A stretch of DNA of 64,000 nt from a bacterium (lineage in GTDB: Bacteria; Patescibacteriota; Minisyncoccia; Phycocordibacterales; UBA918), in assembly GCA_043719295.1 (NCBI GenBank), contig JAYSUD010000007.1:891-64890 (forward strand), given 5' to 3'. Made by a program: the position numbers and the translations under genes. This document shows positions 11,941-58,471 of the stretch, in pieces; the first letter of the stretch is position 1; every line of letters starts with the position of its first letter. The notes under the pieces are model-generated. The model made no database searches and was not told where the DNA came from. It saw only the letters and a list, made by a program, of their open reading frames with translations.

Positions 11941-11960
11941 AATATTTAAATAAATGAAAA

Positions 11961-17922: not shown

Positions 17923-17925
17923 CAT

Positions 17926-18732: not shown

Positions 18733-18807
18733 TGTGCCCCCCTTATCCAATTGCATATTGTAAAACCTCATCAATAAACAACTCCCGAAACTTTTTTTGA
18801 TTTTTTG

Positions 18808-19608
18808 TCACTTTAATCTTTTCTTCTCAAACTTCTTAATCCGTGTTTTTGCTTTCCCAACACCGTCAACCACTGGCAAATTCTCTGGCATAGTACCGCC
18901 AATATTTCTAATAGTGTTCCTCACTTTTTGTCCAACTTCAAAGTGTGCTAGGTTGGCATTACCTTCGCCTTTAATGTTTTCTCTTCGAATTTTTGCGTCA
19001 GTTTGTGTCGCTCGAAATAGATTGGCTGCTAATTCTTCGCTGTTCATATGATCGAGAATTTGCTGAGATGTGCCTAACTTCTTTTTTTCATGAATATCTT
19101 GCATTGTCATTCCACCATACAATCCTTTATAGCCTGCGTTTTGGAAAATTGCATAATTTTGAACACCTGCACCCTTAGCTGTTTTGGTGAGTGACGTATT
19201 ATGCTTTTTTATTTCTTCACGCAGAAAAACTCGTTTGTTATCTTCAACGAGATTATCCGTGTCTTCTTGGCGATGAGTCTGAATGGCAAAGTAAGTTTGT
19301 CCTTTCGCCACGACAACTTTGGTAGGGTTTGAGTTTTGCACAATCAAATAACACGCATAGCGAGACAAATAGACTGTTTCAACGTTCTTTTCCGCTCCTG
19401 AACCAATTGCGACCATATCGGTGGCTTCAACGAAATGGCTGTGGATAACCTCGCCACTATTCTCGCACGCAACCCTTGCTTTACTTATCACGGTTTGAAA
19501 ATTTCGATAATCGGAGTATTCAAGAGCCTTAGCTAGATCACGAGACGACCAATACTCTGCACCTTGGTCGTCCAAACGCTTGATAGTTTCGAACTGATTT
19601 TCTTTCAT
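18808..19608 (-). CDS. dinD: DinD-family (DNA-damage-inducible protein D-like) protein
   Basis: Hallmark blocks EYWSSRDLAKALEYSDYRNFQ, MVAIGSGAEK, LSRYACYLIVQN, GQTYFAIQT, AIFQNAGYKGLYGG, ELAANLFRATQT, TMPENLP collinear with E. coli DinD as recalled. Confidence 0.8.
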   Translation of the reverse strand: MKENQFETIKRLDDQGAEYWSSRDLAKALEYSDYRNFQTVISKARVACENSGEVIHSHFVEATDMVAIGSGAEKNVETVYLSRYACYLIVQNSNPTKVVVAKGQTYFAIQTHRQEDTDNLVEDNKRVFLREEIKKHNTSLTKTAKGAGVQNYAIFQNAGYKGLYGGMTMQDIHEKKKLGTSQQILDHMNSEELAANLFRATQTDAKIRRENIKGEGNANLAHFEVGQKVRNTIRNIGGTMPENLPVVDGVGKAKTRIKKFEKKRLK

Positions 19609-20543: not shown

Positions 20544-20591
20544 AGTATGTTCAAAAGTCCGAGGTCGGACCTCCTCACATGCCAAGACAGC

Positions 20592-24067: not shown

Positions 24068-24084
24068 AGAATTAATAGAACTTT

Positions 24085-24194
24085 TAGAAACGTGTACAAT
24101 TCGAGGCGTGCAAGTTAAATATGACGAGGTGTACGCATAGTACATAGAGGAATATTTTACGCAGCACAACGAAGAAGTGTGCCGTTTGTGGAAG
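24085..24194 (+). repeat. Intergenic repeat element copy R2 (5' module + 3' module)
   Basis: …GTGTACAATTCGAGGCGTGCAAG…CAACGAAGAAGTGTGCCGTTTGTGGAAG. Confidence 0.55.
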
Positions 24195-24201
24195 TTCTAA
24201 C

Positions 24202-24579
24202 TTATTTCAAAATCCCCTGCGGTGTCTCATTACTCTTATACGCTCCATCTTCAGACCAAGAAAGAAAGTGACGCTTTGTATAAAATCCTTTTGCTGTGAC
24301 ATTTTCTGTCATTGCATTTTTGATATCTGCCTCACTAAATTCAAGTTGTTTGGTCAATGCATCAAGAACCACCATTAAGTCGGCATATTCTTGAAGGAAC
24401 TCCTCTCTTGAACGAGTGTGTGCAAGAGAACTTGCTTCTTCTCGTACTTTCTTTAGAAGTTCCTGTTGAAATTCTGCATCATCAGTAATCACCCGAATCT
24501 CGCACGCTTCACCTTTAGATTCAATTCGTTCCTTAATATCGTCTCTAACTAATTTATTATAGTAGACTCGATTTGTCAT
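24202..24579 (-). CDS. MazG-like nucleotide pyrophosphohydrolase (putative)
   Basis: 125 aa; EEASSLAHTRSREEFLQEYADLMVVLDAL resembles EExxE/D…D MazG/HisE-type NTP-PPase motifs; moderate. Confidence 0.45.
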   Translation of the reverse strand: MTNRVYYNKLVRDDIKERIESKGEACEIRVITDDAEFQQELLKKVREEASSLAHTRSREEFLQEYADLMVVLDALTKQLEFSEADIKNAMTENVTAKGFYTKRHFLSWSEDGAYKSNETPQGILK

Positions 24580-25348: not shown

Positions 25349-26023
25349 ATGAGCAATAGTGAAGTAGGACGTGTAGAAGAACTGACTCTGATAACACGTA
25401 ACACAGATCTAGCAAAAAGATTTGAATTGCAAGTCGAGACTGAAAACATCAAAGCTTGCAAAGTGAGTGGAATCATACCAGACAAAACATATCAAGGATG
25501 CATCATCTTAGGTCATGACCTTGTTATGCAGTACTTAGACCGTAAACAAACTCTGATTAATGCAAACCGTATTGTTGTCTATCACGAACAGGGTACACCT
25601 GATGATGAGATTAATTTCATAGATTTACCATTTGGCTGCTACGTACGAGGACAACTCTCCTGCCGTTTGCTGGAGATTCGTTTGAGAAACATTCTAAAAA
25701 ACATAGTCACTAGTGATTCTGCTATAGAAGATGCCTTTCTTACTTGTAATGGGTTCAGCTTTTATCCAGAACGTGCAAAGCTTTACTTTAAGGATGGAGA
25801 GATTGCTCTAACTGTCAAAGAAATAGGTGTTCTTCGTCTCTTGATGTCATCGAAAGGAGCTATTATCAGTCGCGATCGGTTCTTAGATGCGATATATCCA
25901 GATGACAACATCTTACCTCGGACAGTCGACTGTATAATAAAAAAGCTGCGTGCCAAAATACGCAAAATTAGTGATGTCGAACATATTGAGACAATCTATG
26001 GCATAGGATATAGAATGGAATAG
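25349..26023 (+). CDS. OmpR/PhoB-type winged-helix transcriptional regulator with atypical (non-canonical receiver-like) N-terminal domain
   Basis: C-terminal trans_reg_C pattern (…SRDRFLDAIYPDD…RTVDCIIKKLRAKI…IETIYGIGYRM); N-terminal ~120 aa lacks DD/D/K receiver residues in canonical positions; no histidine kinase nearby. Confidence 0.65.
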   Translation: MSNSEVGRVEELTLITRNTDLAKRFELQVETENIKACKVSGIIPDKTYQGCIILGHDLVMQYLDRKQTLINANRIVVYHEQGTPDDEINFIDLPFGCYVRGQLSCRLLEIRLRNILKNIVTSDSAIEDAFLTCNGFSFYPERAKLYFKDGEIALTVKEIGVLRLLMSSKGAIISRDRFLDAIYPDDNILPRTVDCIIKKLRAKIRKISDVEHIETIYGIGYRME

Positions 26024-26091: not shown

Positions 26092-26190
26092 ATACAGATT
26101 TTTTTAATTACACGATATTGATTTTCATATTAAAAAAGAACAATACTCGTGTATTGTTCTTTTTTAATCTTTTATACAATAAAAGCTCAT

Positions 26191-26290
26191 AAATCGAAGT
26201 GGGTACGAGGCGCACAAAGAAATTTTTACGAACCCTACATGCTGTAGGTCGAGTGAAAATTTACTGCAGCACAACGAAGTAACCGACCGA
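26191..26290 (+). repeat. Intergenic repeat element copy R3 (degenerate 3' module) between convergent regulator and groEL
   Basis: …GGGTACGAGGCGCACAAAGAAATTTTTACGAACCCTACATGCTGTAGGTCGAGTGAAAATTTACTGCAGCACAACGAAG…. Confidence 0.45.
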
Positions 26291-26304
26291 TTTTAAGTTT
26301 TTAT

Positions 26305-27957
<1,653 letters not shown>

Positions 27958-31271: not shown

Positions 31272-33308
31272 ATGGAACAAAATAATCACAACGCACAAAC
31301 ACCGCGACCTACATCAGCTCCTTCACGAGGAACTACTCCCCACGCACCGCGACGACAGTACGCAGGCGCTTCACAACCATCAAGTCGGAGTACTTCATTT
31401 ACACGGCGTCCGTATGGAGCACAAACACCACGGCAAACAACGGGAGCCGCTCCTTCAACAAACCCTCACCAAAGAACTACCGGTGAGCGAACTTCACGAA
31501 CTACAGGTGCGCCGAAGCGAAGTCGTGGACGTAAAGATAACAACAGAGGACGAAAATCAATGACCAATCCTGCGTTAAAGCACCGGATGAACATCAAAGA
31601 TGAAAAAACACCAGTACTTGTAGAAGTAACCGACGAAGATACAGTTCGAGTAATCCCTATGTCGGGAGTTGAGCAAATTGGTCGGAACATGACCATTGTT
31701 GAAACAAAAGATGATATCCTCATCTTCGATATTGGATTCCAATTCATCTCACCTGAAAGTAACGCGCCAGGAGCTGACTATATTCTTCCAAACACCCAGT
31801 ATCTTGAAGAACGTCGCCATAAAATCAAAGGGCTTATTGTTACCCACGGTCACCTCGACCACATTGGAGGTATTCCGTTTGTTATGGAACGAATTGGTAA
31901 CCCACCAATTTACACACAATACCTAACGTCATTGATGATCCTCAAACGTCAAGAAGAATTCCCCCACATGGAACCAATAACAATGCACGTTATCAAAGAA
32001 GGTGATTCTTTTGTTGTAGGTAACACAAAAATTAAGTCTTTCCCTGTAACCCACTCTATTCCTGACGCAATGGGGATTTCTGTTGAAACAAAGCATGGAG
32101 ATATTGTTATTACCGGAGACATTAAACTTGTTCATGAGAATGGAGTTGTTGTCGTTGAAGAACGAGAAGCATGGGAAAAAGTAGGACAAAATAAAAACAT
32201 CATGCTGGTGTGTGATTCAACCAACGCCGATCAAAGTGGTTTCTCAGCACCTGAAGGAGTAGTATTCAAAAGTATTGAAGAAATCATTACTAACGCATCA
32301 GGCCGTTTGATTGTTGGTACCTTCTCCTCACAATTTGACCGCTTAACAAATATCATTAGAACCTGTGAGAAGCTCGGAAAAAAAGTTGTGCTTGAAGGGC
32401 GAAGCATGAAGAACAATATCGACATTGCAATAGTGGCAAAACTTTTAATTGTTGATCCCAAAGTGTTCATTAGTGCAAATGACATGCCAAATTATCCAAG
32501 TGATAGAATTGTTATCCTTACAACAGGAGCCCAAGGCGAAGAAAATGCAGCACTCATGCGTATGGCAACTGACAAACATAAATTTGTGACGCTAAGTGAG
32601 AGAGATACGCTAGTACTTTCCTCTTCAGTTATTCCAGGAAATGAAGTTGCAGTCCAAAAGCTTAAAGACAATATTTACCGTAAAAACGTTCGCGTGATTA
32701 ACTACAAGTCTGCAGCAGTGCACTCTTCAGGACACGGTAACGCCTCTGAGCTTGTATGGGTACATCAAACAGTAAAGCCAACATTCTTACTTCCTGTTCA
32801 TGGACACCACTACCACCTTAAGAGTCATATGTACGTTGCAATTGAAAATGGTTTCAAACGCGAAAACATTGTAGTACCTGATAACGGAACTATCATCGAT
32901 ATTAAAAACGGAACTGAACTTACTGTTCACAAAGACAAAGCACCAAATGAAATAGTGCTTGTTGATGGATTTACCGTTGGAACACGACAAGAAGTTGTGC
33001 TACGAGACCGTATTTCCCTTTCAGAACAAGGTATGTTTGTCATTATTGCGACCATCAATACAAAAACAGGAAAACTCCGAAAATCACCAGACATTATTTC
33101 TCGAGGATTTGTCTACTTACGAGAAAGCCAACAACTACTCTCAGAAGCACGTATTTTAATTAAGAAAACGGTAGAAAAAAACACAGAGCGAATGAACCCT
33201 ATTGACCTCGATATTGTCAAAGAAGAACTTTCTGATGTGGTAAGTTCGTTCTTAATGCAGAAGACGCAGAAGTCACCGATGGTTATTCCAGTGTTAATTG
33301 GGATTTAG
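31272..33308 (+). CDS. rnj: Ribonuclease J (metallo-beta-lactamase/beta-CASP) with ~110-aa basic low-complexity N-terminal extension
   Basis: VTHGHLDHIGG (HxHxDH), beta-CASP and C-terminal domain order; N-terminal R/T/P/S-rich extension. Confidence 0.9.
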   Translation: MEQNNHNAQTPRPTSAPSRGTTPHAPRRQYAGASQPSSRSTSFTRRPYGAQTPRQTTGAAPSTNPHQRTTGERTSRTTGAPKRSRGRKDNNRGRKSMTNPALKHRMNIKDEKTPVLVEVTDEDTVRVIPMSGVEQIGRNMTIVETKDDILIFDIGFQFISPESNAPGADYILPNTQYLEERRHKIKGLIVTHGHLDHIGGIPFVMERIGNPPIYTQYLTSLMILKRQEEFPHMEPITMHVIKEGDSFVVGNTKIKSFPVTHSIPDAMGISVETKHGDIVITGDIKLVHENGVVVVEEREAWEKVGQNKNIMLVCDSTNADQSGFSAPEGVVFKSIEEIITNASGRLIVGTFSSQFDRLTNIIRTCEKLGKKVVLEGRSMKNNIDIAIVAKLLIVDPKVFISANDMPNYPSDRIVILTTGAQGEENAALMRMATDKHKFVTLSERDTLVLSSSVIPGNEVAVQKLKDNIYRKNVRVINYKSAAVHSSGHGNASELVWVHQTVKPTFLLPVHGHHYHLKSHMYVAIENGFKRENIVVPDNGTIIDIKNGTELTVHKDKAPNEIVLVDGFTVGTRQEVVLRDRISLSEQGMFVIIATINTKTGKLRKSPDIISRGFVYLRESQQLLSEARILIKKTVEKNTERMNPIDLDIVKEELSDVVSSFLMQKTQKSPMVIPVLIGI

Positions 33309-33462
33309 TTTAAACTTCCAAATTCGGCGCATTTCTTCGTTGCCTCACTCATTTGCTCCCGCGCAGTAGAACTACTACAGCTTGGTCGCAAGCCTCGCTT
33401 GCGCCTCGAACTACATCCAAATTTGAAAGTTTAAAAAACTTAATCTTTATACATAAATTAAA

Positions 33463-38466: not shown

Positions 38467-38480
38467 AGTTTTATTAGATT

Positions 38481-38600
38481 AGACGTTCATAGGTGCCTTA
38501 GATACGCGAAGTACAAAGAAATTTTTTGGAGATGTGCAAGGGCACATTGACAAAAAATTTCTGTAGTACGACAAAGTAGCTAAGGTGCATATGAACGTCT
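38481..38600 (+). repeat. Intergenic repeat element copy R4 bounded by ~21-bp imperfect terminal inverted repeats (AGACGTTCATAGGTGCCTTAG … CTAAGGTGCATATGAACGTCT)
   Basis: TIRs 17/20 Watson-Crick + 2 G-U; core ACAAAGAAATTTTTT…AAAAAATTTCTGTAG shares modules with R1/R3/R7. Confidence 0.55.
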
Positions 38601-39282
38601 ACAGTTCGTAAATTACGTCCTTTCGCTCTACCACCACCTTCCAATCTCGCTTCTTTGCTTCATTAAATAGACCATTATTTGGATTAAAACAAATTGGAAT
38701 TGCAACTGACTTTAGTAGTTCAATATCTCCTTCTGTATCACCAACCCCAATTGAATCTTCCGTAGTCACATCTTCTTTTTCGAGTACTCGCGCAACAATG
38801 TTTGCTTTATTTTCAACAAGGTGCACATCAACCATGATTCCCGTAAACAAGTCTTGTGGGCCAATTTCATAAATCCTCCCATACACTTTGTTGAATCCAT
38901 AATCCTTGCAAAACTCATCTAAAATTGTTTTTGGAGATTGTGAAATTGCTACAAGGTAATAGTTGTCACGCTTGAGTGTTGCAATGAGGTCGCGGGTATA
39001 TCGATACACATAGTTACCTTGTTCTGATACAACCAGCTTCCCCACATCAGCAAGATCTCCATAGTGTATGCCTTTGATGTGAACGATGTATGATGCGACA
39101 ACGGCTTTAATATACGCGTCATAGGTTCCCTCTCTATTTCTCCATGCGTGATACTCTTTGACATACCCATCTTTAGCTTTTTTAGGAAAGATACCTTCTT
39201 TAATTAAAGCTTCCATAAGTTCAATTACTAAACTTGAACGAAACAGAGTTCCATCAATATCAAAGAAAGCGACTTTTTGCAT
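38599..39282 (-). CDS. HAD-superfamily hydrolase, subfamily IB (phosphoserine phosphatase-like)
   Basis: FFDIDGTLF (motif I), …SQSP (motif II region), GVGDTEGDIELL (motif IV). Confidence 0.75.
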   Translation of the reverse strand: MQKVAFFDIDGTLFRSSLVIELMEALIKEGIFPKKAKDGYVKEYHAWRNREGTYDAYIKAVVASYIVHIKGIHYGDLADVGKLVVSEQGNYVYRYTRDLIATLKRDNYYLVAISQSPKTILDEFCKDYGFNKVYGRIYEIGPQDLFTGIMVDVHLVENKANIVARVLEKEDVTTEDSIGVGDTEGDIELLKSVAIPICFNPNNGLFNEAKKRDWKVVVERKDVIYEL

Positions 39283-43059: not shown

Positions 43060-43102
43060 ATAATGATGAATTATATTTTCATAGAATTATTAGCAGAATC
43101 AA

Positions 43103-43247
43103 CAGAACGAGTGCAATTCGAGGTTAAATAGTGACTTAATGTCACTATTTAAAAGGTTGTCGATATTTTGTTAAAAATATCATACAACCTTAACCGTTCA
43201 TGTAATGAAGAAAAGAAACATGAAAAGAAGTGTGCCGTTATGTGGAT
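43103..43247 (+). repeat. Intergenic repeat element copy R5
   Basis: CAGAACGAGTGCAATTCGAGG…AGTGACTTAATGTCACT…GAAAAGAAGTGTGCCGTTATGTGGAT. Confidence 0.5.
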
Positions 43248-43430
43248 TCTATTTTACAACGTATTCTACAGGTGCCTGCAAAATACTTGCCATCAAAACG
43301 CCGAGTAAAATGAGGAACAGTGCTGCACAAAAAAGTGCAATTTTGGGAAACGAAGGCTCCATCTTGCCCGAATGCCAATTTCGAGAGAAAAGAAATGAGA
43401 ATACAAACTGAAATATTGACATAGTAACTT

Positions 43431-44432: not shown

Positions 44433-44469
44433 TAAATTTATTTATTTCATGTATAGGACTTTTGTAAGT

Positions 44470-44592
44470 GAGTGAGAAGTGATATAAAATCACTTTGCAA
44501 GAGGTTACCTGCTCTTTTGGAAAAAGAGTGATAACCTGAACAGTTTCTGTAAGAAACTAGAGAGACGAAGAAGTGTGCCATTTACGAAAGTC
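44470..44592 (+). repeat. Intergenic repeat element copy R6 (middle hairpin module + 3' module)
   Basis: GAGTGAGAAGTGATATAAAATCACTTTGCAAGAGGTTACCTGCTCTTTTGGAAAAAGAGTGATAACCTG…GACGAAGAAGTGTGCCATTTACGAAAG; nested hairpins readable. Confidence 0.55.
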
Positions 44593-45531
44593 CTAAGTAA
44601 ATAGTATCACGAAGCCAACAGTAATAATGGCTATATACACCGACTTCCTCATAATTGTCTTAAAGTCGAATTCATTTTCTCCTGCAGCATGCGGGATAAA
44701 CCGTCCAACAAGGAGACTCAAAAGAATGATAAACGCGAACTTAAGTCCATCAAGTGCCTGCACGACTGCAACATCACCTAAGTCAGTAGCTTTAAGCAAC
44801 ATGAACGCTGCTGCTCCCGCAAGCACTTTTGTAATAAGTACAATCCATCCTGTTTTCTTCGAAGTCTTAGCAGTAGCTGCAGTAATTTCGTCATAGTATG
44901 AAGGTACTAACAAAAGAGAAAGCGCAAAAAGTACAAACCCAATCCGTGACCAGAAGAAACCATCAGCAAAACTCGTTTGCTCGAAAAGTCCTTTCATCAC
45001 GACGTAGTGTAATGCAAAAAAGAGACCACTGTGCACGATATGGAGAATCAGACTCCGATTACCTTTTAATCGCACGTGTGAAAGAAGGAGTGTTCCCAGA
45101 CTTAATAGTCCAATACCCCACAAAAAATGAGGTGCTAGTGGAATGTTAAAGAACAGATACGCCAGCCCAAAAGAAGATATTGCAGAGATGGCACCAATTG
45201 CCGGCATCACGTCTGAAGCATCTTGGTGTTTAAGAGCATCAAACATAGACACGAGTGCCATGAAGAAGGTGTACGCAGCTAAAAACGACATAGCTACCAC
45301 TTGGATAGATGGTTTTTGTACGTCAGCTAAACTTGGAATACCAATTGCATGAAGCCCTGGGATGAACGCAAGTATAAAAATCACCACCCAAAACCCCGTC
45401 ATCAAACATGAATAAAAAGCATACACAAAAGGACGAGGAAGCGCTTTCTCGTCAGAGACAATATATTTATCCAAAATCGCAACAATAGCGTTCAGGAATT
45501 GCCCAGCTGTCGCAAGAATAATCCAGTTCAT
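44593..45531 (-). CDS. Polytopic membrane protein (EamA/DMT-like, ~10 TM)
   Basis: Repeated hydrophobic helices throughout 312 aa; family assignment tentative. Confidence 0.45.
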   Translation of the reverse strand: MNWIILATAGQFLNAIVAILDKYIVSDEKALPRPFVYAFYSCLMTGFWVVIFILAFIPGLHAIGIPSLADVQKPSIQVVAMSFLAAYTFFMALVSMFDALKHQDASDVMPAIGAISAISSFGLAYLFFNIPLAPHFLWGIGLLSLGTLLLSHVRLKGNRSLILHIVHSGLFFALHYVVMKGLFEQTSFADGFFWSRIGFVLFALSLLLVPSYYDEITAATAKTSKKTGWIVLITKVLAGAAAFMLLKATDLGDVAVVQALDGLKFAFIILLSLLVGRFIPHAAGENEFDFKTIMRKSVYIAIITVGFVILFT

Positions 45532-49140: not shown

Positions 49141-49980
49141 TTATAAATTAAATGATTGTGGAATTCCTACAAAACAACCAAGTACATAGTTTCTATCTTT
49201 TCCAATTGTGTACCGATATCCTTCAGGATGTACGTAGCCACCACATGCGTCAACAGCGCCTTCGAACAAGCCATATACCGGAAAGCCATCACGTGCATAT
49301 CCGATAAGTACATTAGAATTTGTATTTTTATAAAAGGAAGCATCACTGTTTGATAATAAAGCACCCAATGAGGTAACCCCTATGATGGTACTTGGTACAC
49401 ATGTGGGATTACTTTGTACACGAGGGTACATTTCTATTTGTAACAACGTAGTGACAACCTGTTCCTTCTTTACTTGTACTGAACTTGATACTGTTGATGT
49501 TGCGAAAAGTATGGGTGCTTCTTTTTCTTCAGTATGTACAATAAGTCGCATGCCAGCTTTTATTTCAATACGCACATCTGAACGAGGCCATTGTGACATC
49601 ACTTCAAATGAATCATCAGAAGAACCACAAGAAACTATCCCCGCATTCCCTTCTACTGAAGTCGCAACATCTTGATCTCCATTGGTTTCTGTCGACGTTG
49701 CGACTACCGCTGTCTCTACGCTCGGGTTAACTTGTATTACTTCAGTGTTTTGTGCAAGAGCCTTTTTAAGACGCTCTATTGTTGAAGCCCGCTTATCTGT
49801 ATCTGTTTTTAATTGCGCTATTGCAGTAAAAGAAGTACTCGCGTTTGTATCGACCAAAAATGCAACAGGAGTACCTGCAAACAATGGTGCATAGACTGCT
49901 TTGAGGTGTGTAAGCGTAATCCCAAAAACCAAAAACAATACTACCCCAACAAATATAACCAAATCTCTACTTCGAATCAT
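49141..49980 (-). CDS. Membrane-anchored protein with C-terminal YHYH-like motif region
   Basis: N-terminal TM; C-terminus …DACGGYVHPEGYRYTIG resembles D.CGGH..P.G.YHYH of YHYH-family proteins; tentative. Confidence 0.4.
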   Translation of the reverse strand: MIRSRDLVIFVGVVLFLVFGITLTHLKAVYAPLFAGTPVAFLVDTNASTSFTAIAQLKTDTDKRASTIERLKKALAQNTEVIQVNPSVETAVVATSTETNGDQDVATSVEGNAGIVSCGSSDDSFEVMSQWPRSDVRIEIKAGMRLIVHTEEKEAPILFATSTVSSSVQVKKEQVVTTLLQIEMYPRVQSNPTCVPSTIIGVTSLGALLSNSDASFYKNTNSNVLIGYARDGFPVYGLFEGAVDACGGYVHPEGYRYTIGKDRNYVLGCFVGIPQSFNL

Positions 49981-50036
49981 TCACCCATAGTAGCAAAAAA
50001 GAAGCTTCAGAGCTTCTTTTTTTCTTGGTATAACTT

Positions 50037-50181
50037 AGTACTTACGCAAACGGCACATTTCGCCTCACTATCTCTTACAGAGACTGTCCACTCATTGGCT
50101 TTTATTCCACTTCGTTTCATAAAACCTCAATGAGTCTTGCGAAGTGATGTAAATCACTTCTCACTCGTTTGCGTAAGTACT
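50037..50181 (-). repeat. Intergenic repeat element copy R9 (inverted orientation) bounded by perfect 16-bp terminal inverted repeats AGTACTTACGCAAACG … CGTTTGCGTAAGTACT
   Basis: Reverse complement aligns with R1 middle/3' modules (GAGTGAGAAGTGATTTACATCACTTCGCAAGACTCATTGAG…CGAAGTGGAATAAAAGCCAATGAGTGGACAG…GGCGAAATGTGCCGTTTGCGTAAG). Confidence 0.6.
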
Positions 50182-50185
50182 ATGA

Positions 50186-51454
50186 CTATGCAATTTTAAT
50201 CTTAACGAGTTGCTCCACGCGCCGTATATCAGCAAGTAATTTTGAACGATCTGCATTATATAAATAAAGCAAAAATACTGCTCTCCCCCCTTTCCGTGCA
50301 AAAGTTGCTCTGTCACCAATTTTTTTATTGACTTTTATTTCGTAAAAAGATTCTAACTGCTCAATTTTCTTAATTCCTTTCATCTCAGTAATAACTCCTT
50401 CTTTTGGCAGGAACCATTTCATGTACACACTATTTCCAGTACATTTCTTTGGAATAATTGGTTTTCTTGGGATTCGTATGAGAATATCGTTTAAATAATG
50501 TTCGATACCGCAACTGAGGTTATAGATAGTATCTCGCGCACCTCCCGTTCGTGGACCCACTTCAATTACTTTCCACTCAGTATCAATTTTCATAAGTTCC
50601 GTATGGGCAGTGGTACTTCGTAATGCCAGTGCATGAATTGCAGTTTCAGTGACAGACTGTGCTTTTTTAACCGTATCACCTTTCAAGATTGTTGGTGTCA
50701 TCTGCGTATATCCATAAAAATCATGATGTCCAATATCTTTTCCAGTTTTTACTCGTACTAACGGCAAGTGATACACGGTGCCACGTGAATTTACATAACT
50801 ATCAATTGAGTACATGTCTCCTTCCATATACTCTTCTGCAATCACTTTCGGCTCTTCCATTCGCTTATCCTTTTCATACGCTGTTTTAAGTTTTCTAAAA
50901 CAAGTTGAGACAGCTTGCTTGAGATCATCTTCGTGGTAACAGATGCTTACAAATAAACTACCTGACATACTCGCAGGTTTTACAATCATTGGAAATCCAA
51001 TTTTTGTGACTACTCTTAGACGCTCAGCAGCAGTTGCATCTTTCACTTTAGTGAATTTCGGAGTTATCTTCGGATCATACAACTTGAAACGTTTTCGCAT
51101 CTCATACTTATCGGTCGCCCAACGTAACGACTCACTTGTTGGAGTTCGAAGATACGGCACACAGGGTACAATTCTTGCAAATCGAGCAATATGCTCTTCA
51201 CTACGGCAAGATATCGCTAAAAGCTCATCCTCAAAAGGTAAGAGTGCTTCACTTATTTTTTCAGGTTTTGAAAAATCTACTTTGATTAAAATATCATGCT
51301 GAGGCACCTTATAGACAACAGGATATTTTATATCCTGAATGAGCATGATGCGAAATGGTGTCCCGTGTTTTTTACCATACGCGCGAATATCACCAACAGA
51401 ATTGGGTTTTAAACCACCAACAAAAGCAATGATATTTTTATGTTTTTTGCTCAT
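50186..51454 (-). CDS. ATP-grasp domain enzyme (L-amino-acid ligase/carboxylate-amine ligase-like, ~420 aa)
   Basis: pre-ATP-grasp + ATP-grasp pattern: …GFPMIVKPASMSGS…, …VIAEEYMEGDMYSIDSYV…, …ELMKIDTEWKVIEVGPRTGG…. Confidence 0.65.
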   Translation of the reverse strand: MSKKHKNIIAFVGGLKPNSVGDIRAYGKKHGTPFRIMLIQDIKYPVVYKVPQHDILIKVDFSKPEKISEALLPFEDELLAISCRSEEHIARFARIVPCVPYLRTPTSESLRWATDKYEMRKRFKLYDPKITPKFTKVKDATAAERLRVVTKIGFPMIVKPASMSGSLFVSICYHEDDLKQAVSTCFRKLKTAYEKDKRMEEPKVIAEEYMEGDMYSIDSYVNSRGTVYHLPLVRVKTGKDIGHHDFYGYTQMTPTILKGDTVKKAQSVTETAIHALALRSTTAHTELMKIDTEWKVIEVGPRTGGARDTIYNLSCGIEHYLNDILIRIPRKPIIPKKCTGNSVYMKWFLPKEGVITEMKGIKKIEQLESFYEIKVNKKIGDRATFARKGGRAVFLLYLYNADRSKLLADIRRVEQLVKIKIA

Positions 51455-51634
51455 ATCTAATTATAAAATAAGGTGCACTTCGGTCTGTATACCAGAAATA
51501 CTGAGGAATGTAGAATTTGTGCACTGAAAGCATACTACATAACCTAAAATTTGCACTAGCTCAATATAGACCATTCAAGCAAAGATATCTAACGCTACTG
51601 AGTTTTTTATAGAAAAGTGTGTTATAAAGCTCCC

Positions 51635-52588
51635 ATGTCTGATGCACACAAACTAAGTATTGAAGTCTTAAAAGAAATTGCAGAGTCGCTTTCATATACG
51701 ACAAAATATCTTCAAAGCAAAGGAACTGCAGAGCGTCTTTTGATCTCTAACGGTAAAAAGATGTATATTGCAAACAGTACACATTTTGGATTTTACCCAG
51801 AAGTTCAAAGGTGGCAGCAACATCTTTTTGACAGCAAAATCTTAACCCAAGAGCTTTTAACCATGCTCGGGTATACAACTATAGTATCTTTCACTGCATA
51901 CTTTAAAGAGTACAACTCCTTGCGTGAACTTAATAGTGCGGTTGTAAACCATATTGAAAAATATCCTGTTATTGTAAAACCTGAACAAGGTGCACGAGGA
52001 AACAACATTACCATTGCAGTAAACAAAACCGCTGTCTTAGAGCAAGTTAAAGCACTCTACGCAATGAAGAAAAGCCTCCTCATACAACCAATTCATGCAT
52101 ATGATGAGTATCGTATTTTAGTTATTAATGGAAACATCGAAGTCATCCACATGAAACAATTAAACCATGTGGTTGGCGATGGAGTACAAACCATTCAAAA
52201 GCTTCTTCATAAAAAACAAAAAGGTGAAAAGGATGACACCTTTATAAAACTTGAATTAAAAAAAAGAGGGCTAAGCCTCCAGTCAATTCTTTCTAAGGAT
52301 GACACATTTTTAAGTCACCTCACTCGCTTCAGTTCTCCAAATGAATACTATCAGTCAAAAAAATTCCCTAAAGATGTGGTCACTTGGGCAAAAAAACTTT
52401 CGCTCGACATATCAGTCCCTACTATAGGAATCGACATCTTTGCCCCGTATGGACTAAGCGATACAAATTCATACATAATCATTGAACTTAATGCCAATCC
52501 CGCTTTTGAATATATCAACAAGCGGTATAATGACAGTCTTAAAGTAAAAGAAATTGCGACAAAATTCCTCACCCATTATTTTAAATAA
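51635..52588 (+). CDS. ATP-grasp ligase, RimK/glutathione-synthetase-like
   Basis: YPVIVKPEQGARGNNITIA, YDEYRILVINGNIEVIH, …ELNANPAF… (RimK-like blocks). Confidence 0.6.
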   Translation: MSDAHKLSIEVLKEIAESLSYTTKYLQSKGTAERLLISNGKKMYIANSTHFGFYPEVQRWQQHLFDSKILTQELLTMLGYTTIVSFTAYFKEYNSLRELNSAVVNHIEKYPVIVKPEQGARGNNITIAVNKTAVLEQVKALYAMKKSLLIQPIHAYDEYRILVINGNIEVIHMKQLNHVVGDGVQTIQKLLHKKQKGEKDDTFIKLELKKRGLSLQSILSKDDTFLSHLTRFSSPNEYYQSKKFPKDVVTWAKKLSLDISVPTIGIDIFAPYGLSDTNSYIIIELNANPAFEYINKRYNDSLKVKEIATKFLTHYFK

Positions 52589-52594
52589 CTAGCT

Positions 52595-53461
52595 ATGAAA
52601 AAAATTATTTTACTTAACGGTGGCAGTAGAACGCGTCGGGCATTCAACGAAGGAGTTGGTGATGCAAAGTTTATACCGCTTCGAACCAAAGGAATGATAG
52701 TGCACATTAACAAAGATCAGGGCGTTGCCTTTATATACAAAAATGACAAAGTAGATTTTACAGATTCATTTGTGTTTACTCGGCTTCGTGCAAATGATGC
52801 TCATTTTTGCGGAATTTTATATGAACACCTAAAGGCACTTGGCGTTCCCGCATTAGATCCTATCAATCTTTCATTTAAATTGTCAGAAGAAAAGATATCG
52901 CAGATGCCACGCCTTGCACGTGCGCACATACAAATTCCAGCAACAATAATTGCACAAGAGGAGTCATACGAATCTAACAAAGAGTACATACAAAAGCACA
53001 TAACCTTTCCTTTGGTATACAAAACAGATGGTAGCCAAGGTAATGCGGTATTTAAAATTAACTCTGAGATAGAGCTTGAAGCAAAAATAAAAATTAAAAA
53101 GAAAAATGAGCTTTTTATACTTCAAGAACTAATACCAAACACATTTGATACACGCACTATTGTTGCATTTGGTACGGTACTTGGTTCTATAAAACGAAGT
53201 GCCCAAAACGGAAACTTTTTAAACAACGTCGCACAAGGTGGACTTGTTTCAGCTTACGAACTAACTGATACTGAGAAAGAAGTGGCACTTTTGGCATCAA
53301 AAATAAATGGTATTGATTTTGGAGGCGTTGATATCATCCATACAGAACGCGGCCCTATTGTACTTGAAGTAAATAAGGCACCTCAAATCACAGGCTTTGA
53401 AAAAATTCATGGAGAGAACTTTGTTTTTAGGACAATCGCTCAAATGCTAGAAAAGATGTAA
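52595..53461 (+). CDS. ATP-grasp ligase, RimK-like (second tandem copy)
   Basis: FPLVYKTDGSQGNAVFKI, …TRTIVAFGTVLGSIKRS…, GGVDIIHTERGPIVLEVNKAPQ; 7 nt after previous gene. Confidence 0.65.
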   Translation: MKKIILLNGGSRTRRAFNEGVGDAKFIPLRTKGMIVHINKDQGVAFIYKNDKVDFTDSFVFTRLRANDAHFCGILYEHLKALGVPALDPINLSFKLSEEKISQMPRLARAHIQIPATIIAQEESYESNKEYIQKHITFPLVYKTDGSQGNAVFKINSEIELEAKIKIKKKNELFILQELIPNTFDTRTIVAFGTVLGSIKRSAQNGNFLNNVAQGGLVSAYELTDTEKEVALLASKINGIDFGGVDIIHTERGPIVLEVNKAPQITGFEKIHGENFVFRTIAQMLEKM

Positions 53462-54190: not shown

Positions 54191-54269
54191 ATGACTATTC
54201 TACCTTCTTTTTTAACCGATTAACAACTTGACGTTGCACCTTAGTGATAGTGCGAGAATTTGAGACTTT

Positions 54270-54383
54270 CAGAAATGAGTACAATTCGAGGCGGGCTAAA
54301 GAAATTTTGCGAGCCCTACTTGCTGTAGGGTGAGAAAAAAATCTTGTAGCCCAACAAAGAAGTTGTGCCATTTATGGAAGTCG
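54270..54383 (+). repeat. Intergenic repeat element copy R7 (5' module + small hairpin + 3' module)
   Basis: CAGAAATGAGTACAATTCGAGGCGGGCTAAAGAAATTTTGCGAG CCCTAC ttgctg TAGGGT GAGAAAAAAATCTTGTAGCCCAACAAAGAAGTTGTGCCATTTATGGAAG. Confidence 0.55.
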
Positions 54384-54386
54384 AAG

Positions 54387-54914
54387 CTATTGGACTATAA
54401 GTTTCCCAACCATCCCACTAGTACGATGACTACCGACTGAACAATAGTATTCATAGGTTCCTTTTTTATCTGCTACAAACGTTGCGGAAGTCTTCACTCC
54501 TGGCTGTACACGCTTTGTAGCAACGGCAAATTCATCGATAACAACGTCATGGAACCCATCAGTACTTTCAAAATTGATAGTTACTGTATCGCCTTCTTTG
54601 ACTACAATTTCTTCAACATCATATCCAAAGTTGACCCCCTTTACCGTGAACACTTGTGCAGTAGGGTCAAGAGTGACTGATGGTTGTTTTACTGCATCTT
54701 TTGGTACCACAATAGATTGCTCAGTGTTTTGATCTTCATTTTGCATCGCTTCAACATCTGAATTTTGCATCACCGTACCATCTGGCATCAGATGAGAATC
54801 TGAAGGTACAACTATAGGAGTCTCTGTTTGAGTCTTCGAATAATATTGCGCAAATGCGAAGTATCCTCCCCCTCCTATCAAAAGCAACGCCAGAATGATA
54901 TATAGGTATTTCAT
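54387..54914 (-). CDS. Cupredoxin (plastocyanin/azurin-like type-1 blue copper protein), secreted/anchored
   Basis: …FHDV… (His) and C-terminal YEYYCSVGSHRTSGMVGKLIV (Cys-x4-His-x4-Met ligand set); N-terminal signal/anchor. Confidence 0.7.
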   Translation of the reverse strand: MKYLYIILALLLIGGGGYFAFAQYYSKTQTETPIVVPSDSHLMPDGTVMQNSDVEAMQNEDQNTEQSIVVPKDAVKQPSVTLDPTAQVFTVKGVNFGYDVEEIVVKEGDTVTINFESTDGFHDVVIDEFAVATKRVQPGVKTSATFVADKKGTYEYYCSVGSHRTSGMVGKLIVQ

Positions 54915-54995
54915 ACTATGTAATCGATTAAATAATACCTACTATACCATAATCTAATAAACCTAAATTAATGTGATTTTGACCATAGTCCTTTC

Positions 54996-55130
54996 ACAAA
55001 CGAGTGAGAAGTGACTAGATGTCACTTCGCAAGAGGTTGCCTACTCTTTTGGAAAAAGAGTGACAACCTGTACAGTTCCAGTAGGGAACAAGAGAGTCTA
55101 CAACGAAGAAGTTGTGCCGTTTGTGGAAGG
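54996..55130 (+). repeat. Intergenic repeat element copy R8 (middle hairpin module + 3' module), near-identical architecture to R6
   Basis: CGAGTGAGAAGTGACTAGATGTCACTTCGCAAGAGGTTGCCTACTCTTTTGGAAAAAGAGTGACAACCTG…CAACGAAGAAGTTGTGCCGTTTGTGGAAGG. Confidence 0.55.
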
Positions 55131-55131
55131 G

Positions 55132-56604
55132 CTATACAATATCGCCAATCTCTTTAGCTATAACAGTCTCAGCCTCATCAATATTTTTACGAAGCCGTTT
55201 AAGAATCTTCGCCTCGGCTTGTGTAAGCTTTCTTTTTTTACTTGTTTTTTCAAGTGTTGCAATATCTTCCAATAAATCAGTACGTAAAAGTTCAAACGCT
55301 TTATGTGTCATAGCTTTCGCTTCAGCAACTTCTTTGGCAACATGTCGACGCAAGCCACCAAATGCTTTCCAAGTAGCGAAGAGTACCCCACAAAGAAGTA
55401 CCACAAGCGCCAAAAATGGTATGACAATTGAAAGTATCATAATAACAAAGTCACCTTTTTGTTTAATACCCCCATTTAAAGTTTCATCATTTTCTTCAAG
55501 TATCACCGACTTATCTATAACAGTAAATGATATTTTTGATTCTGTTGTATTACCTGCACCATCAAAAGCTGTAACAGTAAGGACATGAACTCCTTCTTCA
55601 ATCGCTGTAATTTTATATATATGACTTCCATCATCCACAAACGATACTGGTGTTTCTTCGTTTATTTGCACTGTATACGAAGCAATCTTTGAAAGTTCAT
55701 CTTCAGCTTCAAAGAGAAACGAAAGTGGCGCAACTTCCGTTACTGTAAAAGGTTGTGGTGCTACTGTGTCAACTTGTATTTTATAATGTATTACTTCACT
55801 CCATCCTTGTTGACCTAAAGACTGCACATGAAGGTACGAAGTTCCTTCAGGTAGGTCTTGTATTACTTTAGTTTCTATCGGAGGTTCATACAGTACCGCG
55901 GGTTTTGAACTAGGGTTATCATCAAGGAGCAATCGTAATGCTTTAGTATCACGAACAAACGTAAAGGTAAACATTCCTGTTGTAGTAGAAGACCACCCAT
56001 CTTGTGTATGCGTTGCTGATGTTATTGTCGGTGGAAGTGTTGCGGGACCAGAGGATAGAGATTCTTCTTGTTGCACGCTTTGTACAACAACTTCTGGAAG
56101 TAACGTAAATGAAGCAGTTCCTTTACTTGCAAGAATCTCTGTCCCTTCCCCATCATTTGCAAGTAACGAAGCTGAAGAAAATGAAAGTGAGGAAGCTCCT
56201 TGTGATTTTACCCTAAATGTCAGATTAAGAACCTTCCCTTGTGATCCCTTAAATCCTGGATTAAGAACAATGCCCTCAAAGTTCACTGTTCCTTTAGTAT
56301 TTGAAAATGAAGGTTCTTGAACCCACAAAGACATAATCGACTGGTTCTTTGAAATACTTATAACCTCGAGTTTGTCTTGAGGGTAGGACACAACACCAGA
56401 AACAGCGTTAATAGAAGATTCACCACTTCCTGTATACACACCAACAGTAAATGTTGAACCTTGAGCATAAGAACCTGTTGTTGGAGAAAATGTTAACGTT
56501 GCCGCTAGAGTAACTCCCACTTGAACGAAAAAAAGAAAAATTACAAATGTGAACGTACAGAAAAAGTTCGCCGATATATAAAATATGTTACAAGAAGAAC
56601 GCAC
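55132..56604 (-). CDS. Cohesin-like domain surface protein with Ig-like middle region, C-terminal TM anchor and cytoplasmic coiled-coil tail
   Basis: N-terminal LTFSPTTGSYAQGSTFTVGVYTGSG…INAVSGVVSYPQDKLEVISI… fits cohesin beta-sandwich pattern; TM FVIMILSIVIPFLALVVLLCGVLFATW. Confidence 0.5.
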   Translation of the reverse strand: MRSSCNIFYISANFFCTFTFVIFLFFVQVGVTLAATLTFSPTTGSYAQGSTFTVGVYTGSGESSINAVSGVVSYPQDKLEVISISKNQSIMSLWVQEPSFSNTKGTVNFEGIVLNPGFKGSQGKVLNLTFRVKSQGASSLSFSSASLLANDGEGTEILASKGTASFTLLPEVVVQSVQQEESLSSGPATLPPTITSATHTQDGWSSTTTGMFTFTFVRDTKALRLLLDDNPSSKPAVLYEPPIETKVIQDLPEGTSYLHVQSLGQQGWSEVIHYKIQVDTVAPQPFTVTEVAPLSFLFEAEDELSKIASYTVQINEETPVSFVDDGSHIYKITAIEEGVHVLTVTAFDGAGNTTESKISFTVIDKSVILEENDETLNGGIKQKGDFVIMILSIVIPFLALVVLLCGVLFATWKAFGGLRRHVAKEVAEAKAMTHKAFELLRTDLLEDIATLEKTSKKRKLTQAEAKILKRLRKNIDEAETVIAKEIGDIV

Positions 56605-57419
56605 AGTACAACTATAATACCAATTGTTTTTTCATTTTGATACCACAGTATATCTTTTTGTGGATAGAAAATGACCACACGTTCATTTTGATTCATGTCT
56701 ATTGCCTTAATAAAGATTTTTTTATTTTGGTTTATATTTTTAATTTTGTATGGACTTTCAGCTTTATGGTACCTGCCAAACAAACCCTCTTTAATTTCAA
56801 AGTGTGAGAGCCCAGAGTTTTTATCTAATGTTGAAAAAACCAAAAACGCATCTCCATCGAACACATCAACGTCGTACTCAACTGACGGTACAAAGAGTTC
56901 TGGCACTTCGTCATCTAGATACACTTTCTTCAGGATTGTTGACTCTCCTTCTTCAACTACCACATGCAAGTTTTGAGAAACGACCACCGCCTCTGAGCCC
57001 AACCCATCGTGCACAAGTACTTGAGAATTTGAAATAGAAATAGTACCTTGTCCTTTTTTTAAGACAGAAAAAGTGAGGTTAACAATCGAGGCGTCTTCTT
57101 GTGTAAATCCCCCTGGAGTAATCCCTGCAAACGATACACTTCCATTGTTGACTCCTTTTGTGTCACGAAGCCAGACTGTCACTACCGAATCCCCTGCATC
57201 ACTTGAAACAAACTCAAGAAGGTCAGGAGGGTATGCAACTTCCAGTTCTACTGCATTAAGTACCTGCTTTTGTGTATCAATACGCACAGAAACTGTCAAA
57301 ACATCCCCAACATGAACACTACTAAAGTCACTCTCAATCTTAAGAAGTGCCCCATACACAGGCATTGTTGCCGCATACCATCCAAACACCACCATACTCC
57401 ATACTAAAAATAATTTCAT
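56541..57419 (-). CDS. Cohesin-like domain surface protein with C-terminal TM anchor
   Basis: LLKIESDFSSVHVGDVLTVSVRIDTQKQVLNAVELEVAYPPDLLEFVSS… (cohesin pattern); TM near C-terminus; alternative start MKLFLVW (57419) avoids overlap with upstream gene. Confidence 0.5.
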   Translation of the reverse strand: MKLFLVWSMVVFGWYAATMPVYGALLKIESDFSSVHVGDVLTVSVRIDTQKQVLNAVELEVAYPPDLLEFVSSDAGDSVVTVWLRDTKGVNNGSVSFAGITPGGFTQEDASIVNLTFSVLKKGQGTISISNSQVLVHDGLGSEAVVVSQNLHVVVEEGESTILKKVYLDDEVPELFVPSVEYDVDVFDGDAFLVFSTLDKNSGLSHFEIKEGLFGRYHKAESPYKIKNINQNKKIFIKAIDMNQNERVVIFYPQKDILWYQNEKTIGIIVVLCVLLVTYFIYRRTFSVRSHL

Positions 57420-57421
57420 AT

Positions 57422-58471
57422 TTATCCAGTCCAATGGAAGGCCATAATACTAAAATCTACAAGATTTATTTTTCCATCGCCGTTAAGATGATTTGTCTCA
57501 CGAATTAAAAAGGATGGATTTAGGGGACGCTGATACCAAAATGCAACAATGGAAAAATCAACTAAGTTTACTCTACAATCTCCATTTAAGTCAGCCTTAG
57601 AAGAACACGTTGGTGGCGTGTTGTTGTATACGTTTTTTGTACCAACTTCAAAAGGATATACTGCACTTTGCGAAGAAATAACAGATTCCAAAGAAGCACG
57701 TGATTTAGCTGTATGTGACCCAAGTTCCAATACTGAAGAATCAAAGCTATGCAAATAGACACCATCTGTATCTGAAGTAGCCTTCACAAAATGCTGTAAC
57801 TCTGAATTTACTTCAATGGTGATTGCTGAAAAAGGAGTACTCTGTCCAAAAAGTACAATGGGCTCACCCTTTTTTACTTCAGTTTTATCACCGGTTAACG
57901 TTGGAGACACAAAAATACTTTCAATTTTTGTCACTACGTTTTTACTTACTGATATTGGAAATGTCAAAAGAGTCGATCGTACTCCTTTACTATCTTCACT
58001 GTAGATGGAAAAAATATACGTACCGGCACTTAAACCTTTTATCAAAACTTGAAACGTTGCATTTTCATCAGCAATAGTTGTTGCTACTACTTGTGCATCT
58101 TTTAAGATTGTAACTTCACTTTTAGGGTATGCGCGACCCTTAAGAACAACTTGTGCCCCCTTAGGAGTACTCCCGCCACTTCCCCCACCCCCACCTGAAG
58201 GTGGTGGCGTAAAAATGCAGGACGTTGTATCTAACAGACATGATGATGTACATGACAAGGTTCCTGAAGTAAATCCCTCTAAAGTACAAGAAGACCCCCC
58301 TAAGTCGGGTCCATCACACTCTTCCGGGCTTTCAATGATGTAATCTCCACATCCTTCAACAATTGCTTCTATAGCAACTGTAGAACTTCCAACTCCCTGA
58401 GCATTTGAATATTGAACTACTATAAAACTTACACAAAGTGATACAAGTATAATGACAGAAGGAGCTTTCAT
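57422..58471 (-). CDS. Secreted protein with N-terminal Cys-rich (Myxococcus-type CxDG…EECDG) repeat, Gly-rich linker, Ig-like domains and C-terminal type I dockerin (two Ca-binding repeats)
   Basis: C-terminus …ADLNGDCRVNLVDFSIVAFWYQRP…NHLNGDGKINLVDFSIMAFHW = duplicated DxNxDGxVNxxD dockerin repeats; N-term EGCGDYIIESPEECDGPDL. Confidence 0.65.
   Translation of the reverse strand: MKAPSVIILVSLCVSFIVVQYSNAQGVGSSTVAIEAIVEGCGDYIIESPEECDGPDLGGSSCTLEGFTSGTLSCTSSCLLDTTSCIFTPPPSGGGGGSGGSTPKGAQVVLKGRAYPKSEVTILKDAQVVATTIADENATFQVLIKGLSAGTYIFSIYSEDSKGVRSTLLTFPISVSKNVVTKIESIFVSPTLTGDKTEVKKGEPIVLFGQSTPFSAITIEVNSELQHFVKATSDTDGVYLHSFDSSVLELGSHTAKSRASLESVISSQSAVYPFEVGTKNVYNNTPPTCSSKADLNGDCRVNLVDFSIVAFWYQRPLNPSFLIRETNHLNGDGKINLVDFSIMAFHWTG

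Follow-up and report, generated by a model that had tools for sequence, protein, structure and literature searches.

The question raised by this locus is whether the perfect inverted repeat of R9, at 50036-50182 of a contig from a member of the Patescibacteria, marks a mobile element, and if so, what it is in the element that the mobilising machinery and the host respond to. The window, i.e. the whole stretch of 64,000 nucleotides that was analysed, has a G+C content of 39.8%. Its GroEL is 83-85% identical to proteins of Candidatus Kaiserbacteria, Nomurabacteria and Paceibacteria, and the nearest GTDB species genomes by GroEL are Paceibacteria MAGs (83%), which identifies the host as an uncultured CPR bacterium (Patescibacteria, class Paceibacteria). 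The closest relatives are present only as metagenome or Logan contigs, to which we refer by L numbers. Genomes of CPR/Patescibacteria are regarded as extremely streamlined, and a search of the literature on MITEs and repeats in CPR returned no report of interspersed repeat families in this group.

A closing stem shared by ten copies

The arms of R9 span 50036-50052 and 50166-50182. According to the inverted-repeat search they are 17 nt long and 100% complementary, with 113 nt between them, so that the perfect 16-bp terminal inverted repeats described in the original prediction are real and extend by one more base on each side. The outermost two bases of each arm are TA, giving the layout TA-GTACTTACGCAAACG ... 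CGTTTGCGTAAGTAC-TA, and the plus strand at 50036-50182 reads TAGTACTTACGCAAACG ... CGTTTGCGTAAGTACTA. With arms of 16 nt or more and a loop no longer than 200 nt, four perfect inverted repeats are present in the window and none in 100 first-order Markov simulations, in which even arms of at least 14 nt have a mean count of 0.07. A chance inverted repeat is thereby ruled out and, given the homologous stems in nine other copies of the window, so is the objection raised along with the original prediction, that the match might be fortuitous and without another copy. An independent Logan assembly of run SRR23617205 carries the two junctions of R9 without a difference: contig L001 ends at window position 50135 and L095 begins at 50105 (130/130 identical); R9 is therefore not an artefact of MAG assembly. 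The interior of R9 aligns with copy R1 in reverse orientation over 75 nt at 75% and 93 nt at 74% identity, which bears out the claim that the enclosed part corresponds to the middle and 3' modules of R1.

With its flanking TA on each side, R9 occupies 147 bp and scores 134 bits with covariance model R2; the strand that the family shares as its sense (the "family-sense" strand) is here the minus strand. On this strand the closing stem P1, made of a 5' arm (TAGTACTTACGCAAACG, 50166-50182) and a 3' arm (CGTTTGCGTAAGTACTA, 50036-50052), encloses three hairpins. H1 (50138-50163) has the form GAGAAGTGA-loop-TCACTTCGC and is followed by a conserved junction GCAAGA, the long hairpin H2 (50090-50135) exhibits covariation across 10 sequences, and H3 (50067-50087), with the loop UGUAA, is preceded by a conserved UGGAC/UGUAC junction. 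Both neighbouring genes lie on the minus strand as well: an ATP-grasp ligase-like gene (50186-51454), whose TAG stop is 3 nt from R9, and downstream a gene of 279 aa with a weak YHYH match (49141-49980). Read on the gene strand, the order is the stop TAG, TCA, R9, AG, a terminator-like hairpin with an A-run, a stem and a T-run (49992-50025, minus strand), and the start of the next gene. As the same hairpin is also kept at the empty site of relative L087, it is pre-existing and not a part of the element; the consensus terminator scan made no call on it. Only spurious ORFs overlap R9, and a promoter scan around it returned nothing.

By BLAST and two covariance models, the family numbers ten copies in the window, one of which (33307-33435) was absent from the list accompanying the original prediction, and more than 13 further copies in relatives. 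The elements are 122-220 bp long and fall into two main types. In the a-c type the whole element is a single long irregular hairpin of about 128 nt. It comprises c24 (24075-24202, plus strand), which is antisense to a 125-aa gene and abuts its stop codon; c26 (26179-26306, plus), which lies directly at the GroEL stop codon and ahead of the terminator hairpin of that gene; the tenth copy (33307-33435, minus), which abuts the stop codon of the RNase J gene and is antisense to it; c38 (38478-38605, plus), which lies at the stop codon of a HAD-hydrolase gene; and c54a (54260-54388, plus), the tips of which are decayed. In the R9 type the same basal stem of 16-17 bp encloses three hairpins, as in R9 itself, c44 (44452-44600, plus) and c54b (54984-55139, plus), while c43 (43093-43256, plus) is intermediate and combines an a-type 5' end with three inner hairpins. 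R1 (10941-11161, plus) is a long composite, in which a hairpin of the a-c type carries three hairpins like those of R9 at its apex; it lies between divergent genes, 4 nt ahead of that for a pseudouridine synthase. The R9 type is a chimera in which a separate module of three hairpins is joined to the basal stem of the family. In 10/10 copies of the window the outer stem measures 16-24 bp, and only that of R9 is free of G.U pairs. Since every copy possesses it, the "TIR" is the basal helix of the family rather than a peculiarity of R9. The family displays the generic traits of bacterial MITEs: it is short (below about 300 bp), non-coding and multi-copy, and has terminal inverted repeats, target duplication and presence/absence polymorphism.

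Empty sites and the duplicated target

From the ATP-grasp gene to its downstream neighbour, the spacer measures 205 bp in the window and 12-60 bp in five relatives in which the R9 site is empty, namely L087 (53 bp; ATP-grasp protein identity 90%), L091 (52 bp; 81%), L088 (60 bp; 80%), L092 (50 bp; 72%) and L093 (12 bp; 66%). The L087 spacer is collinear with the window except for the inserted block (window GCATAG-(TCA R9 AG)-TTATACCAAG, L087 GGGTAG-TTATGCCAAG). In another relative, L094 (79% ATP-grasp identity), the same spacer carries a member of the a-c type on the opposite strand, directly after the stop codon. A site filled by a different member on the other strand indicates that the end of the ATP-grasp gene was hit independently in two lineages. 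Elsewhere in the window, the sites of c44 and c38 are empty in L088 and L093, and that of c54b is empty in L091. Thus, the family is, or recently was, mobile, and the empty sites support the view that R9 itself is an insertion. Absent from a relative at 90% protein identity and with a stem free of wobbles, R9 would be a young copy.

The mode of insertion is clearest for c38, which lies within the TA of the TAA stop codon of the HAD-hydrolase gene. Removal of the element together with one TA yields GAACTG-TAA-TCT...ACTATG, collinear with GAACTA-TAA-TCC-ACTATG of L093. The deletion restores the ancestral TAA, from which it follows that c38 entered the TA of the stop and cleanly duplicated it; the first base of the element, a G, turns the stop into TAG. 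The case of c54b fits TA duplication as well: this copy lies in the last codons of a 490-aa gene, for which its TAG is the new stop codon, and removal of the element with one TA restores V-Y-G, to be compared with E-H-G-I-L* in the L091 orthologue. Most copies have TA on both sides, and so does R9 (TA...TA); but for R9 the TA-duplication model needs 7 extra spacer bases in comparison with L087 and L091, and a duplication of AG or of T fits equally.

A fold conserved in one strand

The bases at the very tips of the elements are variable. Among copies of the one genome, the six bases inside TA read GAACTT, GTACTT, GGACTT, GTCCTT, GACGTT or AAAGCT, and within each copy the change is matched by its complement in the other arm; between the stems of R9 and c54b alone there are three such double (compensatory) changes. 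Tips that vary and yet co-vary indicate selection on pairing in one strand rather than fixed transposase sites. The terminal repeats, originally taken as the clearest sign of mobility, belong to a family that moves or recently moved, and to a copy that is an insertion, but they are neither specific to R9 nor a conserved recognition sequence.

The covariation extends along the whole element. For six copies of the a-c type, RNAalifold reports compensatory changes in 28/45 pairs. In an alignment of 16 copies, 90.3% of the cells are paired, compared to 34-40% when the partners are slid by 1-3 columns, and both sides have changed in 41/45 pairs; 0/500 shuffles attain the observed values. These 16 copies were collected with model R1 and fitted to its structure, which inflates the pair counts, whereas the slid controls, which keep the relatedness of the copies, and the comparison of folding energies between the two strands are independent of that fit. 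The fold of the R9 type is supported in four copies, and its inner module in 10 sequences.

The two strands are not equivalent in this respect. In the 16 copies, G.U cells number 65 and A.C cells, each of which would read G.U on the opposite strand, number 17. The folding energy of the family-sense strand is the lower one in 16/16 copies, by 2-27 kcal/mol, and the same strand also folds better for R9, c44 and c54b. Conserved unpaired motifs are found in the fold, namely C-GA-G opposite C-GAA-G, and GAG on one side with UGA on the other side of an apical stem that contains GUAC. Judging from their sequence, these motifs could form tandem G.A pairs.

Placement at stop codons, orientation and turnover

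In 8/10 copies of the window and in 13/13 copies found in the relatives L002, L004, L010 (three), L018, L021, L022, L028 (two), L091 and L094 (two), the family-sense strand runs at its 3' end up to or into the stop codon of a gene encoded on the other strand (gap of -16 to 0); for c43, the contact is made with a 56-aa ORF. The 5' end lies 7-374 nt from the next gene. The exceptions in the window are R1, which lies in a divergent promoter region, and R9, in which the family-sense strand is the mRNA strand. The count of orientations is therefore 21 antisense to 1 (two-sided binomial P ~1e-5), with an effective number that is somewhat lower, as the count includes some copies at the same site in related genomes. 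This corrects the original reading of the inverted copy as a sign that the family can insert in either orientation, which was misleading: the 21 stop-abutting copies share one orientation, and R9 is the sole exception. On the whole, the original interpretation is partly supported.

The orientation follows the gene and not the replichore. The GC skew is negative across the whole window, and under this uniform skew the copy 33307-33435 flips with its local plus-strand gene, which rules out a replication-strand cause of the bias. An outward promoter in the 5' module, with TTGCAC as the -35 box, was rejected as another cause, as the segment in question forms part of a co-varying helix and lacks conservation. 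R9 and c26 each lie between a stop codon and a separate terminator-like hairpin downstream, so that the elements are expected within 3' UTRs.

Individual gene ends have a history of their own. A copy at the GroEL stop is present in the window, L096 (GroEL 98% identical in amino acids), L097 and L098 (95%) and L010 (81%), and absent in L004-L006 (91%) and in relatives at 76-83%. These copies are only 46-65% identical to each other, compared to 69% at third codon positions of GroEL between the window and L096, and the copy of L096 is nearest to that of the more distant L010. Divergence of this extent and the kinship of the L096 and L010 copies show that the element at this site was not simply inherited but has been replaced, be it by re-insertion, gene conversion or allelic exchange. 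The counterpart of c24 at the same site in L004 is about 70% identical, and the differences are compensatory. Altogether, copies at the same gene end are found in genomes that are 9-19% diverged in GroEL protein.

Distribution and the search for a mobiliser

The family is widespread in Paceibacteria (CPR) and occurs also in some Desulfobulbales. Among 950 kb of GroEL-linked loci from other phyla, two clear members were detected outside CPR, both in this order: one in Desulfosediminicola flagellatus, between genes for a gluconate-kinase-like protein and 6-phosphogluconate dehydrogenase (6PGD), and the other in an uncultured relative of that species, upstream of nifE-like genes. In both, the family-sense strand is on the gene strand. 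An exact-pattern scan with the 3' module matched no GTDB species genome, one metagenome contig (L002) and no viral contig.

No transposase or recombinase was identified among 34 ORFs of the window that were scanned with Pfam or NCBIfam, and neither an IS630-family gene nor a Y1 transposase was found among the ORFs scanned. About 0.7 Mb of the relatives' loci contain no pair of arms 0.7-2 kb apart that would enclose a gene, as expected of an autonomous copy, and neither in these loci nor in the window was a cognate IS with matching termini found.

Several known classes of elements were considered and rejected as the identity of the family. A known RNA family (ribozymes, riboswitches and Y RNA included) is not indicated by Rfam 15, in which only tRNA-Ser exceeds the gathering threshold in the window and permissive scans of R9, c24 and L057 returned noise only. 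An intrinsic terminator is contradicted by the sequence after the element, where no T-run (U-tract) follows on either strand, and a gene-specific riboswitch by the unrelatedness of the flanking genes (GroEL, RNase J, HAD hydrolase, 6PGD, nifE-like). The pneumococcal BOX element is not known to be related in sequence; integron attC sites are rejected by the absence of core boxes and by neighbours that are core genes; and REPIN/REP-RAYT by the architecture of one structured hairpin of 125-150 nt with TA duplication and by the lack of a Y1 transposase among the scanned ORFs.

What is recognised, the sequence or the fold?

We propose that the family is a non-autonomous, MITE-like palindromic repeat that spreads with duplication of TA, owes the competence of its copies to a fold of one strand, is mobilised in trans and is filtered by the host according to orientation; we give this scenario a probability of roughly 0.6. 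The data show that elements are gained at a TA located at a stop codon or a few bases past it, with duplication of the TA. The mobilising enzyme, acting in trans, would recognise the folded strand, as single-stranded DNA or possibly as RNA, rather than a fixed terminal sequence. Selection at the level of the host would then retain, with few exceptions, the copies that have their well-folding strand antisense to the mRNA. The sense orientation of R9 may be tolerated owing to the youth of the copy and to its position immediately before a terminator that was already there. Correction of quasi-palindromes is a known mutational route, and the perfect stem of R9 may reflect either the youth of the copy or the removal of mismatches by such correction.

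The duplication of TA is in some tension with the recognition of one strand by its structure, since it is the hallmark of DDE transposases (IS630/Tc1 type), the substrate of which is double-stranded DNA. The first alternative is a classical MITE derived from an IS of the IS630/Tc1-mariner type, in which the TIRs are the sites where a DDE transposase encoded elsewhere binds and cleaves double-stranded DNA, the hairpin and its covariation are by-products, and the orientation bias is due to host selection only. The TA flanking both ends of most copies and its duplication by c38 would be expected under this scheme, as would small, non-coding, multi-copy elements with presence/absence polymorphism, and the TA signature is shared by RUP/IS630-Spn1 and by ERIC-type elements (PMC2229807, PMC3184786). 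However, fixed binding sites are difficult to reconcile with the six positions inside TA, which vary among copies of one genome in both arms together, and a by-product would hardly co-vary in 41/45 pairs along the element, keep conserved motifs in unpaired loops and differ between strands as it does (G.U 65 vs A.C 17; energies 16/16). An IS with such ends was found neither in the window nor in the ~0.7 Mb of relatives' loci. We consider a classical MITE unlikely.

Equally tentative, and not to be favored at present, is a broader idea, according to which the family is more than a decaying MITE, namely a cross-phylum, strand-specific structured element with conserved internal loops of the tandem G.A type. 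Its placement at stop codons would be due to machinery that recognises the single strand in its folded state (as an attC- or HUH-like recombination site in single-stranded DNA), or else it would be an antisense RNA at the 3' ends of genes. If true, the family would be the first system of this kind known from CPR bacteria, and this would account for the near-absolute rule of orientation as well as for the serial replacement of copies at one gene end.

Somewhat less probable still is a structured non-coding or cis-regulatory RNA of the host, either an antisense RNA or an element of 3'-end processing or stability, that is kept for its function and has spread only secondarily. Such a role would agree with the very strong covariation, the conserved internal-loop motifs (C-GA-G opposite C-GAA-G; GAG-stem-UGA) and the conserved G.U pairs, with the occurrence of copies at the same gene ends in genomes 9-19% diverged in GroEL protein, with the strict placement at stop codons and upstream of terminators, and with the presence in two phyla. 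On the other hand, in 21/22 cases the strand that folds well runs antisense to the flanking operon, and at many copies the spacers of 7-20 nt leave no room for a promoter of its own; copies are gained and lost among close relatives and cut ORFs short, the flanking genes are mutually unrelated, Rfam has no match, and neither strand carries a U-tract after the hairpin. Finally, that the arms of R9 match fortuitously or through misassembly of a repeat is refuted: two short-read contigs do break within R9, as expected of a repeat or a palindrome, but none of the 100 simulations produced an inverted repeat of at least 16 nt, the junctions are identical in the independent assembly, and stems homologous to that of R9 are found in the nine other copies of the window and in more than 13 outside it.

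Whichever mechanism applies, one repeat family makes up about 2% of the 64-kb stretch. Its insertions give rise to new stop codons, shorten C-termini and reshape the 3' UTRs of core genes, among them those for GroEL and RNase J, and its copies break short-read assemblies. The covariance models built in this work could serve as annotation tools for MAGs of Paceibacteria.

Comparison with known palindromic repeats

The attC site of integrons is an imperfect palindrome directly after the stop codon of an ORF, in which it is the structure and not the sequence that is conserved, the apex is variable and the folding strand is antisense to the ORF. The CPR family resembles attC in its palindrome at the stop codon, conserved structure, variable apex and folding strand antisense to the ORF. 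It differs in its termini, TAGAAC...GTTCTA, which lack the RYYYAAC/GTTRRRY boxes, and in its neighbours, which are syntenic housekeeping genes (GroEL, RNase J) rather than cassettes; no integrase was found.

Among the elements mobilised in trans, REPINs maintain their capacity to form hairpins in single-stranded DNA or RNA by compensatory changes and depend on RAYT, a transposase of the Y1/HUH type (PMC3116915). The CPR repeat is likewise a hairpin-forming, non-autonomous element with a fold kept by compensatory changes. However, the typical features of a REPIN, i.e. a doublet of REPs of 20-40 bp, a conserved GTAG/CGTC tag, the absence of target duplication and a nearby RAYT gene, are not seen in the CPR family. 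RUP of pneumococcus and the Correia elements of Neisseria are 100-160 bp long, with terminal inverted repeats, insertion at TA and transcripts that form stem-loops (PMC2229807). The termini of RUP match IS630-Spn1 and are conserved in sequence, whereas the tips of the CPR family co-vary and no cognate IS was found.

The BOX elements of Streptococcus pneumoniae (boxA-boxB(n)-boxC) are modular, highly base-paired and MITE-like, with no proven transposase (PMC3049150). As in BOX, the terminal modules of the CPR family are conserved and complementary and the middle is variable; unlike BOX, the family has no tandem boxB-like units and has a different sequence, and neither the placement at stop codons nor the asymmetry of strands has been described for BOX. 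Compensatory changes that keep an RNA structure are also known in bcr1, a transcribed repeat of the Bacillus cereus group (PMC3184786), and a location mainly in the 3' UTRs of ORFs in QMITE2 of Coxiella (PMC10969869). The target duplications of bcr1 and QMITE2 are 5 bp and 7-9 bp, respectively, unlike the TA of the CPR family, and an orientation rule is unreported for either of them.

The CPR element works most like the ERIC (IRU) elements of Enterobacteriaceae. Wilson and Sharp (2006) reportedly observed ERIC copies at orthologous sites, with compensatory changes. ERIC elements are imperfect palindromes of 127 bp with TA at both termini (PMC3184786); they are located in transcribed intergenic regions, often at the 3' ends of genes, and influence the mRNA in an orientation-dependent manner (PMC2229807, PMC10969869). 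Similarly, the whole CPR element forms an imperfect palindrome, about 125 bp long, flanked by TA and found at the 3' ends of genes. In contrast to ERIC, the CPR family resides in a different phylum and has no detectable sequence relation to it, its orientation is nearly fixed (21:1), with the better-folding strand antisense to the mRNA and the 3' end at the stop codon, and its apex is modular. What is new with respect to all the families compared here is the group of hosts (CPR and Desulfobulbales), the near-absolute rule of stop-codon placement and orientation, and a conserved fold that is antisense to the mRNA. The combination of TA duplication, variable but paired tips, an antisense fold and a 21:1 orientation offers a handle on whether elements of the ERIC/BOX type are recognised as sequence or as structure, and on how they are filtered by the host.

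Further copies of the family and the stand-alone module

A tenth copy of the family, in addition to R1-R9 of the original prediction, is located in the window at 33307-33435 on the minus strand, immediately 3' of the stop codon of the RNase J gene, to which it is antisense. Outside the Paceibacteria, clear members of the a-c type, which folds into one long irregular hairpin, are present in the Desulfobulbales, at L037:13842-13968 (minus strand, 54 bits with model R1, the covariance model of this type) and L057:20484-20616 (minus strand, 37 bits with the same model), and the carriers include the genome of the cultured Desulfosediminicola flagellatus. Both members have a G+C content of 36-39% and lie in the sense orientation, and the genes that adjoin them (6PGD in one case and a nifE-like gene in the other) are mutually unrelated.

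In copies of the R9 type, the basal stem encloses three hairpins in the order H1 - GCAAGA - H2 - UGUAC - H3, with a UGUAA loop in H3. In R9 itself the corresponding module spans window positions 50067-50163. Among 10 sequences, 17 of the 19 pairs of H2 and H3 exhibit compensatory changes. The module also occurs without the terminal stem of the family in three other Paceibacteria, where it adjoins tRNA-Ser(GGA) (L004:17132-17191, minus strand; L021:13902-13988 and L009:16473-16627, both plus strand); at the L004 locus, a 22-nt copy of the 3' end of this tRNA (TTCGAATCTCCCCGCCTCCGCA) comes after the module.

In two further loci the module interrupts the 5' end of a GH1 glycosidase gene (L094:13626-13830 and L092:12840-13010). 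The old start and approximately 12-15 codons (..FPEGFYWG..) are followed by the module, a TAG stop and a new ATG, after which the same N-terminal codons recur, so that 35-45 nt of coding sequence are present twice, as direct repeats. Judging from this arrangement, it looks as if the disrupted end of the gene had been regenerated by the element itself.

A separate small repeat, GAGGTCCGACCTCGGACTTTTA, consists of a hairpin and a GGACTTTT tail, and its two copies in the window (11919-11945 and 20547-20573; 0.02 expected by chance) are mutually inverted. A motif resembling it comes after the family element in L094 (11440-11490).

Neighbouring genes

In the window, tRNA-Ser(GGA) is directly followed by an HNH-endonuclease gene (17926-18732) and then by a gene with a BRO-N domain (18808-19608, minus strand); the region as a whole (17836-19608) may be a small element integrated at the tRNA. 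Between the GroEL and LemA genes lies a Trans_reg_C response-regulator-like gene (25349-26023, plus strand), which is missing from this position in the relatives L004 and L096 and is therefore a lineage-specific insertion adjoining c26, the a-c copy at the GroEL stop codon. The window contains two RimK-like ATP-grasp genes (51617-53461, plus strand), on the strand opposite to the adjoining ATP-grasp ligase gene, whereas its relatives have one, on either strand, or none; since both copy number and strand differ, the local arrangement is variable. Finally, the stretch at 55132-58471 (minus strand) encodes a series of proteins that look secreted and carry cohesin, dockerin-like, Big_6 and OmpL47-type domains; such surface machinery is unusual in a CPR genome.
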